Of a stretch of 39,052 bases of DNA, positions 5,331 through 11,256 are shown one piece after another. The translations under genes were made by a program, and so were the position numbers. This DNA comes from Planctomycetota bacterium (GTDB taxonomy: Bacteria; Planctomycetota; UBA11346): the NCBI GenBank assembly GCA_038231435.1, contig JBBRLJ010000047.1:1-39052 (forward strand), given 5' to 3'. Below the pieces are notes generated by a model. It was not told where the DNA came from. It saw only the letters and a program-made list of their open reading frames with translations, and made no database searches. Each line of letters begins with the position of its first letter. Positions within the stretch are counted from its first letter, which is position 1.

Positions 5331-6656
5331 ATGCCCAGCCGTCTGAACGCCGCCTTCCCTACGTCGATCCTGCCGCTGCGCTGGGCGCTGACCGCGGCCT
5401 TGGTGGTCGCCTGCAGCTCCCCCAGCCTGCTCTCCGTCGCTTGCGCCGCAGATGGCGGCGAGGCTCCGCAAGCCGGCATGTCCGCGACCATGGCGGTGAA
5501 GGGCAATGTGCGCTACGGGCCCAGCACCAAGGCCAAGGCGGTGTGCAGCTTGGACGCTGGCGAACCGCTCGAGGTCATCGGCAAGGCCGAAGTGCCCGAC
5601 TGGTTCGTGGTGCGCTTCCCGCAGAAGGGCCAGGCCTGGGTCCACGGCAAGAACCTGCAGGCGGTCGATGGCGGCAAGCGCTGGAAGGTGATCAGCGATG
5701 GCACCAAGGCGCGCGACGACGCGACGCTCAAGGGCGCGATCGTCGCCGAGCTCAGTGTGGGCGAGGTCATCGACGACCGCAACCGCGCCGTGGGCGACTG
5801 GCACGCGGTCTACATCCCGAGCGCAATCGCCTATGCGCACAAGAGCGTGCTCAACCTGCCGAGCGCCGACGCGATCAAGCAGCAGCAGGACCGCGCCGAC
5901 AAGGCCCAGGCCACCTGGGAGTCCGCGCAGTCGCGCTACCGCCAGCTCTACAAGAAGCTGCAGGACAATCCCGAGGCCGCGCTCGATCTCGATTCGTCGC
6001 TCTTCGACCAGCTCGAGGTGGTGATCAAGGATCACGCCGATGCGGCCGTGCGCCTGTCGGCGCAGCGCATCAAGGACGGCGTCACCAAGGTCATCGAGAC
6101 CTGCAAGGCGCTGCGCGATTCGCGCAATGCCACGCCCCAGCATCCCGCGACCACCAGCGGCGGCACGACCGGAGGCGCGGTAGCGACCACCGGCGGCACC
6201 ACAGGAGGAACCGTCGCCAAGACCACGGGTGGCGCGACCACCGGTGGCACCACCACCACCGCCACGCCAGCGGCCACCACCAGCGGCGGCACGGGTGGAG
6301 GCACCGGCGAGCTCGCGGTGCCCGACGATGCGCACACGCCAGCGGCGACGCCGACCAATCCCACTCCGAAACTACCCACGCCCGTCGCCAATAGCGGCGC
6401 CTTCGCCGCGGTCGGCTTCGTCAGCGAGAACAGCGAATATCCCAAGGTCAGCGCCACCAATCTGCTGCTCGACGGCAACAGCAAGGTGGTCGCCTTCCTC
6501 AGCGTGAAGACCGGCGCCACCGTCAATCTCGCCGAATACTACTGGCGCTGGGTCGGCGTCACCGGCGACGTCCAGGACCTCGACCAGGCTCTGCACGGGA
6601 TGGGCACGAAGATCCCCCTGATCATCGTGGATGGCGTGGCGTTGGTGAAGAAGTGA
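5331..6656 (+). CDS. Exported protein with two SH3b-like domains, helical region, Thr/Gly-rich linker and C-terminal beta domain
   Basis: Hydrophobic N-terminus. NVRYGPST...LDAGEPLEVIG...WFVV...AWVH is SH3b-like, with a second similar unit. TTGG low-complexity linker. Codon usage fits this strand. Confidence 0.75.
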   Translation: MPSRLNAAFPTSILPLRWALTAALVVACSSPSLLSVACAADGGEAPQAGMSATMAVKGNVRYGPSTKAKAVCSLDAGEPLEVIGKAEVPDWFVVRFPQKGQAWVHGKNLQAVDGGKRWKVISDGTKARDDATLKGAIVAELSVGEVIDDRNRAVGDWHAVYIPSAIAYAHKSVLNLPSADAIKQQQDRADKAQATWESAQSRYRQLYKKLQDNPEAALDLDSSLFDQLEVVIKDHADAAVRLSAQRIKDGVTKVIETCKALRDSRNATPQHPATTSGGTTGGAVATTGGTTGGTVAKTTGGATTGGTTTTATPAATTSGGTGGGTGELAVPDDAHTPAATPTNPTPKLPTPVANSGAFAAVGFVSENSEYPKVSATNLLLDGNSKVVAFLSVKTGATVNLAEYYWRWVGVTGDVQDLDQALHGMGTKIPLIIVDGVALVKK

Positions 6657-6670
6657 GATGGGAGAATTGA

Positions 6671-6775
6671 GAAGACCGAAGACCGAAGACCAAAGCGGAG
6701 AAGCCTCAAGCCTCTCCGCTTCTAGCTTCTAGCTTCTAGCTTCGATCTTCCGTCTTCCCGTCTTCCCGTCTTCCC
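6671..6775. repeat. Inverted compound microsatellite: (GAAGACC)x3 - hairpin - (GCTTCTA)x3 - (GTCTTCCC)x3
   Basis: Units at 6671-6691, 6718-6738 and 6752-6775. Central stem AAGCGGAGA (6693-6701) pairs with TCTCCGCTT (6713-6721). The outer GAAGAC and GTCTTC cores are complementary. Confidence 0.9.
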
Positions 6776-6813
6776 CCTTCCCTCCCCCCCTCCCTCCTCA
6801 TCCTGTCCCGCCG

Positions 6814-9552
6814 ATGGCCAAGGCTCCCTCACCGCTCGATACGCCGATGATGCGGCAGTACCTCGAGGTGAAGGCCGAGCGGCCCGATTGCCTGCTGATG
6901 ATGCGCATGGGCGACTTCTTCGAGGCCTTCCTCGACGACGCCGTCGAACTGTCGCGCATCACCGGCGTCGCGCTCACCAGCCGCAACAAGGATTCCGACC
7001 ATCCGATCGCGATGGCGGGCGTGCCGCACTTCAGCTTCCCCGGGCATCTGCCCAAGCTGCTCGCCGCCGGCAAGCGCGTGGCGATCATGGATCAGCTCGA
7101 GGATCCGAAGGAGGCGGCCAAGGATGGGCGCAGCCTGGTGCGGCGCGGGCTGACGCGGGTGATCACCGCGGGCACGCTCATCGACGAGGTTGACGCCGGC
7201 GGCGGCGCCAACCACCTGGTCGCGATCACCGCCAGCGAGGGCGTGATCGGCATCGCCGCGCTCGACGTCTCCACCGGCCGCTTCACCGTCGAGGAAGCGG
7301 GCTCGCCCCCGCAGCTGGCGTTGGCACTGTCGCGCCTGCAGCCATCGGAGGTGGTGGTTCCCGAGGAGCTGCGCGATAGCCCCGAGGCGATGGCCCGCCT
7401 CGCGAACGCCTTCGCCTCGATCGGCGCCAGCGCGCCGATATCCGGCCTGGCGGCGTACGCGTGGAAGGGCGGCGACGCGCGTCGCTTCCTCTGCGAGCGT
7501 CTGAAAGTCGGCTCGCTCGACGGTTTCGGCATCGGCGGCGGCGAGGATCACCTGGCGGCCGCCGCGGCGGCCGCCATGCGCTACGCCGAAGGTGCGCTGC
7601 GCATCGGCGGCGACGGCTCGCTGCGCCTGCACGAGACCATGGACGGCGGCGGCACCGGCGCGCTCGCGCACGTGCGTGCGCTCACCCGCCTGCACCACGC
7701 CGAGCACCTGGTGATCGACGCCAGCTGCCGGCGCAATCTCGACCTGCTGCGCAACAGCCGCGACGGCGGCCGCGACGGCACACTGCTCGGCGCCGTCGAC
7801 CGCACCAAGACCGCGCCGGGCGGACGCCTGCTCGCCGAGTGGCTGTCGCGCCCGCTCGCCCAGGCGGCGGGCATCGGCGCACGCCACGACGCCGTCTCGC
7901 TGCTGGTCGCGGGCGACAGCCTGCGCGCCGATCTGCGCGACCTGCTCGCCGAGGTCTACGATCTTGAGCGCCTGCTGGCGCGCATCGCCACCGCGCGCGG
8001 TAACGCCCGCGACCTGGTGCAGCTCAGGCGCTCGCTCGCCGCCGCCGAACGCGTGCGCGGGAGCATGCGTGGCCAGCCGCTGCCGGCGCTGCTCGCCGAG
8101 GCCGCCGAAGCCCTGGTCCCCGACGCCGCGCTCGCGGTCGAGATTGCGCGCCTGCTGGTCGACGACCCGCCGATCGCGATCGGCGAGGGCGGCATGGTCA
8201 GGGACGGCGCCGACGCCGAGCTCGACGGCCTGCGGGCGATCCGCACCGACGCGGGCGAATGGTTGGCGTCGTACCAGCGCCGCGAGGCCGAGGCCTGCGG
8301 GTTGGCCAAGCTGAAAGTCGGCTACAACAAGGTCTTCGGCTACTACATCGAGATCTCGAAGGCCAATGGCGAGAAGGTGCCGCCGCACTTCGTGCGCAAG
8401 CAGACGCTGGTGGGCGCCGAGCGCTACATCACCCCCGAGCTCAAGGAGTACGAAGACAAGGCGCTCGGCGCCGAGGACCGCATCCGCGCGCGCGAGCTGG
8501 CGCTATTCGGAGCGTTGCGTGACCGCGCCGCCGACGCGGTGGGCGCGCTGCAGCGCTGCGCCACCGCGCTCGCGGTGATCGACGTGGTCGCGGGCCTGGC
8601 CGAGGCCGCGCGCAAGGGCGACTGGTGCCGGCCGGTGGTGGACGACAGCCAGGAGCTGGTGCTCGAGGAATGCCGCCATCCGGTGGTCGAGCAGGTGGTC
8701 GGCCGTGGCTTGTTCGTCGCCAACGATACCGCGCTGCGCGCGGCCTCGAGCGAGCCCCAAGTCCCGCGCCTGGCGGTCATCACCGGGCCCAACATGGCGG
8801 GTAAATCCACCTACATCCGCCAGGTGGCCCTCGCGGTGATCCTCGCCCAGGCGGGCAGCTTCGTGCCAGCGCGCGCCGCGCGCGTCGGCCTGGTTGACCG
8901 CGTCTTCACCCGCGTCGGCGCCGGCGACGAGCTCGCGCGCAACCTCAGCACCTTCATGGTCGAGATGGCCGAGACCGCGGCGATCCTCAACCACGCCACG
9001 CGCCGCAGCTTGGTGGTGCTCGACGAGGTCGGGCGCGGCACCTCGACCTTCGACGGCGTCTCCTTGGCGTGGGCCATCACCGAGCATCTGCACGACCGCA
9101 TCGGCTGCCGCTCGCTGTTCGCGACCCACTACCATGAGCTCGTCGACCTCGCCGCCGACCGTCCCGGCATCGCCAACTTGACTGTCGCCGTCGCCGAGCA
9201 GGACGAGGACGTGGTGTTCCTGCACCGCATCGTCCCCGGCGCCGCGACCAAGAGCTACGGCATCCATGTCGCGCGACTGGCGGGCGTCCCCGCCACGGTG
9301 GTCGCGCGCGCGCGCGAAGTCCTGGCCACGCTCGAACAGCTCAACGTCAGCCTCACCGAGCGCGAACGCCCCGCCGTGCGCACCGACGCCGCCGCCAACG
9401 GCCGGCCCGCGGCGATGCAGTTGACCCTCTTCCAGGCCAACGAGAGCGCGACCCTGCAGCGGCTGAAGGCGCTGGATCTGGATGGTGTCGCGCCGCGGGA
9501 TGCGTTGGCATTGCTGTATGAATTGAAGAAGGCGGCGCAGACGGAGGCCTGA
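6814..9552 (+). CDS. mutS: DNA mismatch repair protein MutS
   Basis: TPMMRQY, MGDFFE (FxE mismatch motif), KVGYNKVFGYYIE, Walker A GPNMAGKST, STFMVEM, DEVGRGT, ATHYHEL, SYGIHVA. Confidence 0.98.
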   Translation: MAKAPSPLDTPMMRQYLEVKAERPDCLLMMRMGDFFEAFLDDAVELSRITGVALTSRNKDSDHPIAMAGVPHFSFPGHLPKLLAAGKRVAIMDQLEDPKEAAKDGRSLVRRGLTRVITAGTLIDEVDAGGGANHLVAITASEGVIGIAALDVSTGRFTVEEAGSPPQLALALSRLQPSEVVVPEELRDSPEAMARLANAFASIGASAPISGLAAYAWKGGDARRFLCERLKVGSLDGFGIGGGEDHLAAAAAAAMRYAEGALRIGGDGSLRLHETMDGGGTGALAHVRALTRLHHAEHLVIDASCRRNLDLLRNSRDGGRDGTLLGAVDRTKTAPGGRLLAEWLSRPLAQAAGIGARHDAVSLLVAGDSLRADLRDLLAEVYDLERLLARIATARGNARDLVQLRRSLAAAERVRGSMRGQPLPALLAEAAEALVPDAALAVEIARLLVDDPPIAIGEGGMVRDGADAELDGLRAIRTDAGEWLASYQRREAEACGLAKLKVGYNKVFGYYIEISKANGEKVPPHFVRKQTLVGAERYITPELKEYEDKALGAEDRIRARELALFGALRDRAADAVGALQRCATALAVIDVVAGLAEAARKGDWCRPVVDDSQELVLEECRHPVVEQVVGRGLFVANDTALRAASSEPQVPRLAVITGPNMAGKSTYIRQVALAVILAQAGSFVPARAARVGLVDRVFTRVGAGDELARNLSTFMVEMAETAAILNHATRRSLVVLDEVGRGTSTFDGVSLAWAITEHLHDRIGCRSLFATHYHELVDLAADRPGIANLTVAVAEQDEDVVFLHRIVPGAATKSYGIHVARLAGVPATVVARAREVLATLEQLNVSLTERERPAVRTDAAANGRPAAMQLTLFQANESATLQRLKALDLDGVAPRDALALLYELKKAAQTEA

Positions 9553-9625
9553 GGGCGGTCGGAATGTTCGGTGTTCGGTCTTCTCTTTCTTCGGGTCTTC
9601 GAGGCTTCTCGCGTCTGGCCTACAC

Positions 9626-9866
9626 GCCTCGTGCTTCTTCGTGTTTGTTCGTTCGGAAGATGACGACGTTGAAGAGGCCGTGACGCTTGGAGGCCCCGAG
9701 GCTGAGAGGCCGACAGCAGAAGACAGGTAGGCACGGTCGTGGTCGGTTTCTCCTGGTAGCGCAATCGTCGCGGACGTGCTCGCAGTCAAGGACGGCGGGC
9801 GGGGCGCCCGCTCGCGGCGGAGCGCCGTTGCCGGGGCGGCCATCCTTGACAGCTGCGCGCGTCCGC
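9626..9866 (+). repeat. Left arm of a long imperfect inverted repeat flanking the four-helix-bundle gene
   Basis: Outer block GCCTCGTGCTTCTTCGTGT...TGACGACG, five GA(G/C)GC-core units at 8-bp period (9674-9710), and an inner palindrome GCGGACG..GTCAAGG..CCTTGAC..CGTCCGC (9770-9866). Confidence 0.85.
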
Positions 9867-9893
9867 GGGCAGAGGCGCAAGGAGAAATCTCAC

Positions 9894-10244
9894 ATGAGGA
9901 CATTCGAGGATCTCGCGATGTAGCAGGTTGCGGCGGAGCTGGTGGAACAGCTATCAAGGGAGCGACAAATACGGCGCTCTGGCGATGGCATTGGGCATCA
10001 GATCCGCGAGGCGGCGGTGTCGATCGCCTCGAATATAGCCGAAGGGCGGGGGCGCGTCGGCGACGCGGAGTTCCACCGCTTCCTCGCCATCGCGCGTGGA
10101 TCGTGCACCGAAGTACAGGCGCAACTGCGACTGGCATTCCGCTGTGGCAACCTCGAACGCGAACGCTTCGAGTCGATGCTCCACCTCGCGCAACGTGTGA
10201 CCTGGATGCTCACCGCCCTGATGAGGCGGCTCGCGCCGCCGTGA
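9894..10244 (+). pseudogene. Four-helix-bundle protein (23S rRNA IVS protein / Avd-like family) with one in-frame TAG
   Basis: AAGGAG RBS, then MRTFEDLAM*QVAAELV...QIREAAVSIASNIAEGRGR...EFHRFLAIARGSCTEVQAQL. The TAG at 9921-9923 sits at the conserved Trp of the family motif FxDLxVWQ; the rest of the frame is intact. Confidence 0.92.
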
Positions 10245-10280
10245 GCGCACCCCTAGTGTGCTCTCCTTCGCCCCCACCCA

Positions 10281-10516
10281 GCGAACGAGCGCAGCGGTCA
10301 AGGTTGGCCGCTTCGGACACCGCGGTTCCTCCGCGGCGGACGGCGCCCCGCCGGCCGACCTTGACGGCGAGCACGTCCGCTACGATCGGCGAATCTCGGA
10401 GAGCATCCCACTTCCGCTCTCTGTCCGAGCTTCTTGCTTCGTGCTTCCAGCTTCCCGCTTCTTCGTCGTCACTACGGATCGGACCGAGACTGAATACTCG
10501 TAGAGGCACTCGAGGC
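10281..10516 (-). repeat. Right arm of the long imperfect inverted repeat
   Basis: The reverse complement reads GCCTCGAGTGCCTCTACGAGT...TGACGACG, then five GAAGC-core units at 7-bp period (10429-10461), then ATCGTAGCGGACGTGCTCGCCGTCAAGG...CCTTGAC, collinear with the left arm. Confidence 0.85.
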
Positions 10517-10578
10517 TCAGAAGCTCAGAAGCTCAGAAGCTCAGAAGCTCAGAAGCTCAGAAGCTCAGAAGCTCAGAA
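10515..10578. repeat. Perfect octamer tandem repeat (GCTCAGAA)x8
   Basis: Read directly; it begins at the outer edge of the right inverted arm. Confidence 0.97.
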
Positions 10579-10599
10579 GAACTTCTCCCCTCCCCCGCA

Positions 10600-11256
10600 C
10601 TACCTGTATTTCCCCACCAACCTCGTCGCCCTCTCCTCCAACCTCTCCAGCTCCTCCGATAATCCCTTCGCCCGCTTCTCCAACTCCGCCGCCGTCGGCT
10701 CCGCCTCCGGATACACGATCGGTTCGCCGTACACCACCGCGAGATGCGCGCGCGGCAGCGGCACGCGGAAGCGGTCCCAGCTCTTCTTCAGGGTCAGCTC
10801 GCGCGTCGCGCGCACCGCGATCGGCACCAAGGGGATGCGGTTGCGTCGGGCCATCTCGAGCGGACCGGTCTTGGCGCGCTTGAAGGGGCCACGGGGGCCA
10901 TCGACGGCGATCGCGAGCTGGTAGCCGTCGCGCAGCGCCTCCATCAATTCCTTGGCCGCGTGCACGCCGCCACGCGCGCTCGAACCGCGCACCGGGCGCA
11001 CGCCGACACGGCGCATGTAATCGGCGATGATCTGGCCGTCGCCGGACAGGCTCGCGAGCGCCGCGACCTTGAAGCCCTGGTGCGGCGCGAGCACGGAGAG
11101 CAGGCTCTGGTGCCAGAGGCAGAACACCGCGGTGCCGGTGGGGCTCAGGCGCGCAGCGCGCATGACATTCGCGGAGCCGTAGAGGTGGAAGCGCAGCGAG
11201 GCGACGAGATTGCTGGCGAGCAGATGGACGAGTTCCGGTGGCGGCCGATAGCCCAT
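10600..11256 (-). CDS. DUF374 / lysophospholipid acyltransferase-family protein
   Basis: FCLWH, ASLSGDG, VRGSSARGG, AVDGPRGP and SWDRFRVPLP are characteristic of DUF374 proteins. Confidence 0.9.
   Translation of the reverse strand: MGYRPPPELVHLLASNLVASLRFHLYGSANVMRAARLSPTGTAVFCLWHQSLLSVLAPHQGFKVAALASLSGDGQIIADYMRRVGVRPVRGSSARGGVHAAKELMEALRDGYQLAIAVDGPRGPFKRAKTGPLEMARRNRIPLVPIAVRATRELTLKKSWDRFRVPLPRAHLAVVYGEPIVYPEAEPTAAELEKRAKGLSEELERLEERATRLVGKYR

Follow-up and report, generated by a model that had tools for sequence, protein, structure and literature searches.

We examined the convergent genes mutS and DUF374 in a 39,052-nucleotide (nt) stretch of DNA from a member of the Planctomycetota (contig JBBRLJ010000047.1 of assembly GCA_038231435.1; the whole stretch is called the window), with attention to the codon usage of the two gene ends facing the cassette between them. 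mutS (6814-9552, plus strand), identified as MutS by Pfam and NCBIfam, and the DUF374 gene (10600-11256, minus strand) are separated by positions 9553-10599, which hold a decayed PF05635 element between arms of 7- and 8-mer repeats. The left arm region (9553-9760), delimited by Tandem Repeats Finder (TRF) and DNA folding, comprises a short G/T-rich 7-mer repeat (9565-9583), a pyrimidine arm and small hairpins. It is followed on the plus strand by a conserved leader (9764-9893) with AAGGAG at its end before the start codon; the leader has 16 blastn matches in the genome and is found upstream of relatives in other genera. The gene behind it (9894-10244, plus strand) encodes a four-helix-bundle protein and carries an in-frame TAG at codon 10. 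Its product matches PF05635 with 85.7 bits (curated cut-off, 33.8) and TIGR02436 with 90.1 bits (cut-off, 24), and the family alignment matches PDB 2GSC at 3e-35. A second, inverted copy of the leader (10262-10386, minus strand; inverted repeat I1) has 80% identity over 127 nt to the first and lacks its four-helix-bundle open reading frame; it is inferred to be the remnant of a convergent pair of such genes. The right arm region (10428-10599, TRF) contains a 7-mer array (10428-10461), an 8-mer array of eight units (10515-10579) and a C-rich spacer. A second site of like kind, without a four-helix-bundle gene, lies between an SH3 gene and mutS (6630-6813), where TRF and base composition reveal a purine arm and then a pyrimidine arm.

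A preliminary description of this DNA had claimed that both gene ends facing the cassette are depleted of C at the third codon position (C3), and its counts were exact. Only 2 of the 32 mutS codons at 9454-9549 end in C, compared with 7 of the 11 just before them, and the same is true of 1 of the 38 DUF374 codons at 10603-10716 (minus strand), which include AGG four times, TTG three times and TTA once. The tails are loaded with G instead: 23 codons end in G (G3) in the mutS tail (9454-9552, plus strand) and 33 in the DUF374 tail (10600-10716, minus strand), the opposite strand of which is C-rich, G-poor and unstructured. From the amino acids and the codon usage of the genome, 12.6 C-ending codons were expected in mutS (P=4e-6) and 14.1 in DUF374 (P=1e-8), for window edges picked after the fact. 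With a fixed tail of 30 codons, DUF374 ranks 16 and mutS 28 for C3 depletion among the 3528 genes called with a self-trained gene finder, and 43 tails genome-wide have z<-4, compared with 3 in an internal control segment. Amino-acid composition, offered earlier as an alternative, fails, as the shift survives amino-acid control in both tails and genome-wide. The same polarity had been claimed for 6630-6813. There it is strong in the non-coding DNA; the SH3 tail has 2 C-ending codons in 10 where 4.5 are expected (P=0.06), and the 5' codons of mutS resemble those of its orthologs.

Both tails align codon for codon with orthologs from cassette-free congeners, which use C ordinarily: the last 30 codons of mutS contain 14 C3 in one congener (G002) and 19 in the other (G001). 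Gene order is kept in both; the gap between mutS and DUF374 holds nothing in G002 and a repetitive extragenic palindromic (REP)-like repeat in G001. The tails were therefore rewritten in place, and since the protein sequence is kept, it is mainly silent sites that changed. The same codon-for-codon homology ruled out foreign or duplicated DNA left by an integrative element that replaces 3' ends. One metagenome relative (78%, from a frameshifted read) lacks a cassette, and its tail is ordinary.

The shift is tied to the repeat site throughout the genome. The repeats of the source genome comprise 192 degenerate arrays, mostly intergenic, out of 221. We classed a 3' end as array-facing when an array lay within 80 nt of it, which held for 129 of the 3528 ends, and used 1100 ends whose gap is free of repeats as controls. 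Over the final 10 codons, C3 and G3 stood at 0.55 and 1.30 of expectation in array-facing ends and at 0.85 and 1.02 in controls (p=1e-13). Both decay smoothly to baseline at about 90 nt from the array. The tail shift (-0.33 per codon) is about 10 times the difference between plus- and minus-strand genes on a contig (0.035). By first detected arm, the C ratio was 0.39 beside purine-rich arms (n=48) and 0.63 beside G/T-rich arms (n=23). Among the 43 most depleted tails, the facing repeat is an array in 22 and REP-like in 3, and the other 18 have neither. Orthologous tails lacking an array show no such shift. In pairs with an array on one side only, 26 of 37 genes shift to G in the partner that carries it and 10 in the opposite direction (p=7e-4), for pairs drawn from the fetched loci only rather than from all genes; excluding REP-bearing partners leaves 19 and 10 of 30 (p=0.005). 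Array-free pairs split into 20 and 27 of 53 genes in the two directions. Together, these comparisons show that the shift depends on the presence of the cassette, both within the genome and between orthologs in both directions.

What the tails acquire is G. At fourfold sites of the source genome, C falls from 0.44 to 0.31 and G rises from 0.40 to 0.55, with no rise in T; at sites that allow only C or T, T goes from 0.21 to 0.33. Rare codons are taken up accordingly, AGG making up 0.27 of Arg codons versus 0.07 (about fourfold) and TTG 0.22 of Leu codons versus 0.10. The paired third-position flux is 106:43 for C>G, 32:19 for C>T (not significant), 14:8 for C>A and 27:18 for A>G. In Patescibacteria, array-facing fourfold sites differ from controls in G (0.39 versus 0.24), A (0.17 versus 0.25) and T (0.20 versus 0.28), with C at 0.23 in both. 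The general rule is thus a gain of G on the strand running into the cassette, which reads as a loss of C only in a GC-rich genome such as this one (67% GC). Such a rule argues against simple deamination, one of the causes proposed in the preliminary description, which does not account for a flux mainly from C to G, a flat T at fourfold sites and Patescibacteria that gain G from A and T with C unchanged. No clear deaminase-like sequence context was seen either, the C ratio ranging from 0.43 to 0.68 across contexts.

Because both of its flanks are sense-strand 3' ends, the mutS-DUF374 locus itself is unable to show the strand symmetry that had been claimed for it. Elsewhere in the genome, the claim stood for non-coding DNA: 5' spacers facing arrays have a mirrored skew of 0.40 versus 0.10 (n=34 versus 1932, p=5e-7), and the mirror is present at 16 of 21 divergent sites. 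Within coding sequence the mirror is weak. The 80 array-facing 5' ends have a G3 of 0.63 versus 0.80 (p=0.002; coding mirror overall, p=2e-4), with more A-ending Lys, Glu and Gln codons (0.43 versus 0.26), and this part of the claim did not survive stricter comparisons, which are taken up below. The coding 5' effect is about one third of the 3' effect. Since the effect at 3' ends is some three times that at 5' ends, the halo is probably reinforced by transcription into the site, and we take the pattern to reflect a process that acts on both sides but far more strongly where transcription enters the site.

The 3' shift is also found in other lineages. Ends facing G-rich arms are shifted in the source family (37 versus 90 ends, p=0.03), in mixed phyla (25 versus 142, p=0.001) and in Patescibacteria (38 versus 190, p=1e-4), with p-values that overstate significance because kin are not independent. 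Before counting, we set aside loci offering under 250 reference codons, ends no more than 150 nt from the edge of a locus, arrays that extended over 45 nt into the reading frame, duplicate ends and the genes of the four-helix-bundle family; of the 66 cyanobacterial loci, 62 entered the counts. No significant shift was detected in 34 phylum-level loci (18 versus 19 ends, p=0.19) or in GC-rich loci of other phyla under a stricter arm filter (14 ends, p=0.40).

In the roughly 90 nt flanking these 7/8-mer hairpin cassettes, then, G is enriched on the strand that runs 5' to 3' into the cassette. We interpret this as a local, strand-polar mutational halo that arises when the DNA at the hairpin is repeatedly opened and recopied in an error-prone manner, a reading to which we give a probability of about one half. 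The hairpin site would be opened again and again, either through cutting and resection or because replication or transcription stalls there and keeps it open, and the inward-pointing strand would be left single-stranded for a short stretch. Recopying past damaged bases would mostly place C on the new strand, so that C, A and T of the inward strand would drift to G, and C to a smaller extent to T and A. In favor of this reading stand the dependence on the site, the smooth decay with distance, the shift of non-coding spacers and divergent sites, the uptake of rare codons, the lack of a strong context preference, the halo of Patescibacteria with and without rho, and the likeness of tandem and convergent tails over the last 15 codons. 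The polarity is that of a resected break, as had been suggested: C is lost from the top strand 5' of the site and G 3' of it, as in the 5'C single-switch clusters at resected double-strand breaks of yeast, where top-strand C is likewise lost to the left and G to the right (PMC6786661). G:C>C:G transversions depend on ImuBC in Caulobacter (PMC3901139). The source genome has a second dnaE, a candidate only for an ImuC-like polymerase, which could by analogy be a source of C>G changes. More tentatively, and with considerable doubt, the cassettes, which occur in many bacterial phyla, might be sites of programmed opening and recopying by an unrecognised, G-biased (dC-inserting) error-prone synthesis, possibly with an Avd-like protein helping in trans; the halo would then be a fossil footprint of cassette movement or maintenance, and the opposite halo of REP-like repeats, described below, would reflect a different chemistry.

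Several observations weigh against the reading of repeated opening and recopying. No break, nuclease or polymerase was identified. Uncatalysed deamination and the A-rule do not give a spectrum in which any base changes to G, and the spectrum itself is a net flux rather than a list of events, because synonymous sites are near saturation between the congeners. The shift is not significant beside pyrimidine-rich first arms (C ratio 0.82, n=41, p=0.18), the units of 65, 47, 35 and 23 arrays show no directional G-loading along the arrays, and cyanobacteria carry like cassettes with G-rich arms and have no halo (50 versus 226 ends, p=0.41). The 5' coding mirror is gone in the 27 genes with unambiguous starts, a filter that strips GTG codons from both groups; it does not appear in 20 ortholog pairs and fails to reach significance in other genomes (65 versus 475 ends, p=0.22). 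At codons 25 to 60 of array-facing 5' ends, moreover, the sense strand is G-rich, the reverse of what the first 10 codons show (p=0.001 within the genome; p=0.009 in ortholog pairs). Finally, at codons 16 to 35 convergent tails are more biased than tandem ones (-4.6 versus -1.1, p=0.0035). This would not be expected of a pure DNA break, and the deeper bias of convergent tails points to a role for transcription.

That role is central to a rival explanation, in which selection acts on RNA: the strand leaving the hairpin would be kept C-rich, G-poor and unstructured to terminate read-through or antisense transcripts just beyond it. The geometry would be that of a Rho utilization (rut)-like site after a protective stem-loop, the G-rich tail being the other strand of the signal, and since the cassette is palindromic, the signal is expected on both sides. 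The locus has such a layout, with C-rich, G-poor, unstructured RNA past a hairpin without a U-tract, as in the hairpin-then-rut arrangement of E. coli (PMC6061677). Its outward strands are extreme rut look-alikes, with a C/G ratio of 8.6 opposite the DUF374 tail and 2.8 on the other side (99.99th and 99.84th percentiles) and minimum free energies of 0 and -8.7, respectively, versus -33. Rho is present in the source genome, and the cyanobacteria that lack the halo also lack a detectable rho (not found in 46 of 46). Together, these points make selection for termination a strong rival. It would also account for a gain of G from any base and the weak coding effect at 5' ends. The deeper bias of convergent tails and the scarcity of U-tract terminators at array-facing ends (2 of 129 versus 23 of 400) speak for it as well. 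Nevertheless, we doubt it. Tandem tails equal convergent ones nearest the array, divergent sites show the halo where a rut site would harm the genes' own leaders, and TC, but not CC, is commoner than the shifted codon usage accounts for. In Patescibacteria, the halo is seen at 28 ends of genomes without a rho match (-2.24 versus -0.77, p=0.02) and at 12 ends of genomes with rho (-2.63 versus -0.23, p=0.003), with no difference between the two (p=0.59), in a contrast of 90 loci from 41 genomes that are incomplete and in which rho loss may be recent. Subject to that incompleteness and recent loss, Rho is not required, so the Patescibacteria show no rho dependence and disagree with the cyanobacteria, which are rho-less and halo-less. 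Rho avoidance, raised in the preliminary description as a form of selection on mRNA 3' ends, likewise fails as a general cause on the equal Patescibacteria halos, and avoidance of structure fails because real tails pair with the arm no less than recoded ones do. The 44 most depleted tails in fact pair with it slightly more (29 more, 15 less).

The remaining explanations fare worse. G-rich arm pieces, or the complement of the far arm, might have been copied into the flank by slippage or template switching, presumably of the kind proposed by Ripley, with selection keeping the synonymous outcomes. Some stop codons are overlapped by arrays, the halo is strongest beside purine arms, tails are slightly closer in sequence to their own repeat unit than to other units (0/200 and 1/200 shuffles), and they share more 5-mers with their own downstream DNA (2/500 shuffles). 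Such spill-over is unlikely to be the cause, however, and contributes little: such likeness is very slight (median 0.27 of 14 letters), tails of low resemblance are still shifted (C 0.72, G 1.24), the gain of A versus T is independent of arm type (p=0.42), the left and right flanks of 147 sites are no more complementary than shuffled pairs (-27.5 versus -27.5 kcal/mol), and the G-rich arms of cyanobacteria leave no halo. The order of events might instead be reversed, with G-rich tails arising by a lineage-local process and then seeding or attracting arrays. The 18 of 43 most depleted tails without an array or other detected repeat, several of them with degenerate purine tracts, would fit this order, although they may be sites that lost an array. 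We consider it very improbable, as orthologous tails without arrays are ordinary and the conserved leader and gene move as a unit. We hold out as little for retrohoming of the kind seen in diversity-generating retroelements, in which an Avd-like four-helix-bundle protein would aid an error-prone reverse transcriptase in copying hairpin RNA and gene tail into the chromosome. PF05635 resembles Avd (PMC10053308), and a sense-strand 3'-end bias with A>G would suit an mRNA template. The main change here is at C and not at A, the window holds no template/variable repeat pair involving the tails, and there is no PF00078 match in the source genome (88% complete) or in G002, G013 and G032, which have 10, 15 and 6 family genes, respectively. 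A generic gene-end skew, amino-acid composition or chance is the least credible of all. Every gene end does lose some C3 (0.85-0.88 in the last 10 codons), and fungal genes have C-rich 5' and G-rich 3' ends (PMC3315797). Yet in control ends A and T take the place of the lost C and G3 stays near 1.0, and array-facing ends differ both from these controls (p=1e-13 to 1e-19) and from their orthologs, so that this explanation is already refuted for the source genome.

A second repeat family of the same genome bears the opposite mark. REP-like family 0 (394 segments; for example, G000:C61:24911-25116) has a longer halo in which the inward strand favors C over G, peaking at 90 to 180 nt and reaching about 450 nt (369 3' ends, p=2e-31; mirrored in 80 5' ends, p=0.002). 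It holds against each gene's own core; in ortholog pairs, of which there are few, it is not significant (10 and 7 genes). Two repeat families with opposite marks in one genome argue against a generic gene-end effect. The source genome has one weak Y1 transposase match only.

The source genome carries 17 four-helix-bundle genes, 12 of them in 6 convergent pairs. These tail-to-tail pairs (on G000 C13, C25, C28, C34, C50 and C62) turn the cassette into one large imperfect palindrome. The frame in the mutS-DUF374 cassette is broken; the other 16 genome matches have no internal stop, and one is partial. In a complete genome of the source phylum (G026:C1), 52 family matches were found, many of them sharing the position of their stops, as though amplification had started from a broken copy. 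In the leader of about 130 nt (window 9736-9897 and 10262-10386), a fixed inverted repeat closes a variable GC-rich hairpin; it precedes four-helix-bundle genes across several genera of the source family (L036, L040, L042, L045, L047, L052 and L058) and has no Rfam match at the gathering score. Rfam detected only a tmRNA and one tRNA in the window, both outside the cassette, and a consensus search for promoters and terminators at the cassette found none. At a third array site (621-720), two perfect 7-mer runs lie immediately upstream of the tmRNA gene (217-580). The arms around the four-helix-bundle gene of L032 (G040) are built of a telomere-like G4T2A unit, and a run of 14 G lies at the outer edge of a purine arm at G000:C4:101799-101981, which suggests runaway G-loading without coding constraint. 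Four-helix-bundle genes occur in 75 of 151 genomes of the Patescibacteria sample (G150-G301) and rho in 31 of 151, an uneven occurrence that studies of termination could exploit.

The cassette gene is a member of the PF05635/TIGR02436 family of 23S rRNA IVS proteins (PDB 2GSC and 2RLD), though this member is broken and sits between protein genes, enclosed by repeat arms. Our literature search found no paper tying this four-helix-bundle family to altered flanking codons, and a term search of the accessible text of MacGregor 2015 (PMC4679880) found no mention of helix-bundle genes. The closest known counterparts of the arms are the G-rich heptamers of Xanthomonas and Nostoc (Rehm et al. 2015, PMC4692102), which follow the same orientation rule, with the G-rich strand being the sense strand just past stops and the antisense strand just before starts, and which also occur at convergent pairs. 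As far as its accessible text goes, that study treats the repeats themselves and not a codon shift in their neighbors; the cyanobacteria analysed here have no halo. The search, which left most subscription papers and all supplements outside, found no report of a codon halo beside such heptamers. The yeast clusters with the same polarity (PMC6786661) are eukaryotic, APOBEC-driven, single events with long tracts; the cassette halo spans about 90 nt, has accumulated over evolution, runs mainly to G and shows no deaminase motif. Rho-dependent 3' ends (Dar and Sorek 2018, PMC6061677) have a hairpin without a U-tract followed by C-rich, G-poor outgoing RNA, as here, but their enrichment of C over G is mild, whereas ours is extreme, two-sided and present also where rho was not found. 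In unicellular fungi, the bias toward C at 5' ends and G at 3' ends reaches fourfold sites and untranslated regions, as it does here; in the fungi, however, it is genome-wide (PMC3315797), and ours is limited to ends facing a cassette.

For the spread of heptamer repeats and of IVS/Avd-like four-helix-bundle genes, the halo narrows the possible mechanisms and provides a measurable read-out: it has a defined strand, a reach of about 90 nt and a direction toward G, and it occurs in planctomycetes, Patescibacteria, Bacteroidota and other hosts, not in cyanobacteria. If selection were its cause, it would represent a termination signal that does not need Rho. That repeats can rewrite the ends of core genes, mutS among them, is of consequence for analyses of codon usage and selection. 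Together, these results suggest that the cassettes leave an unexplained mutational mark on neighboring genes.

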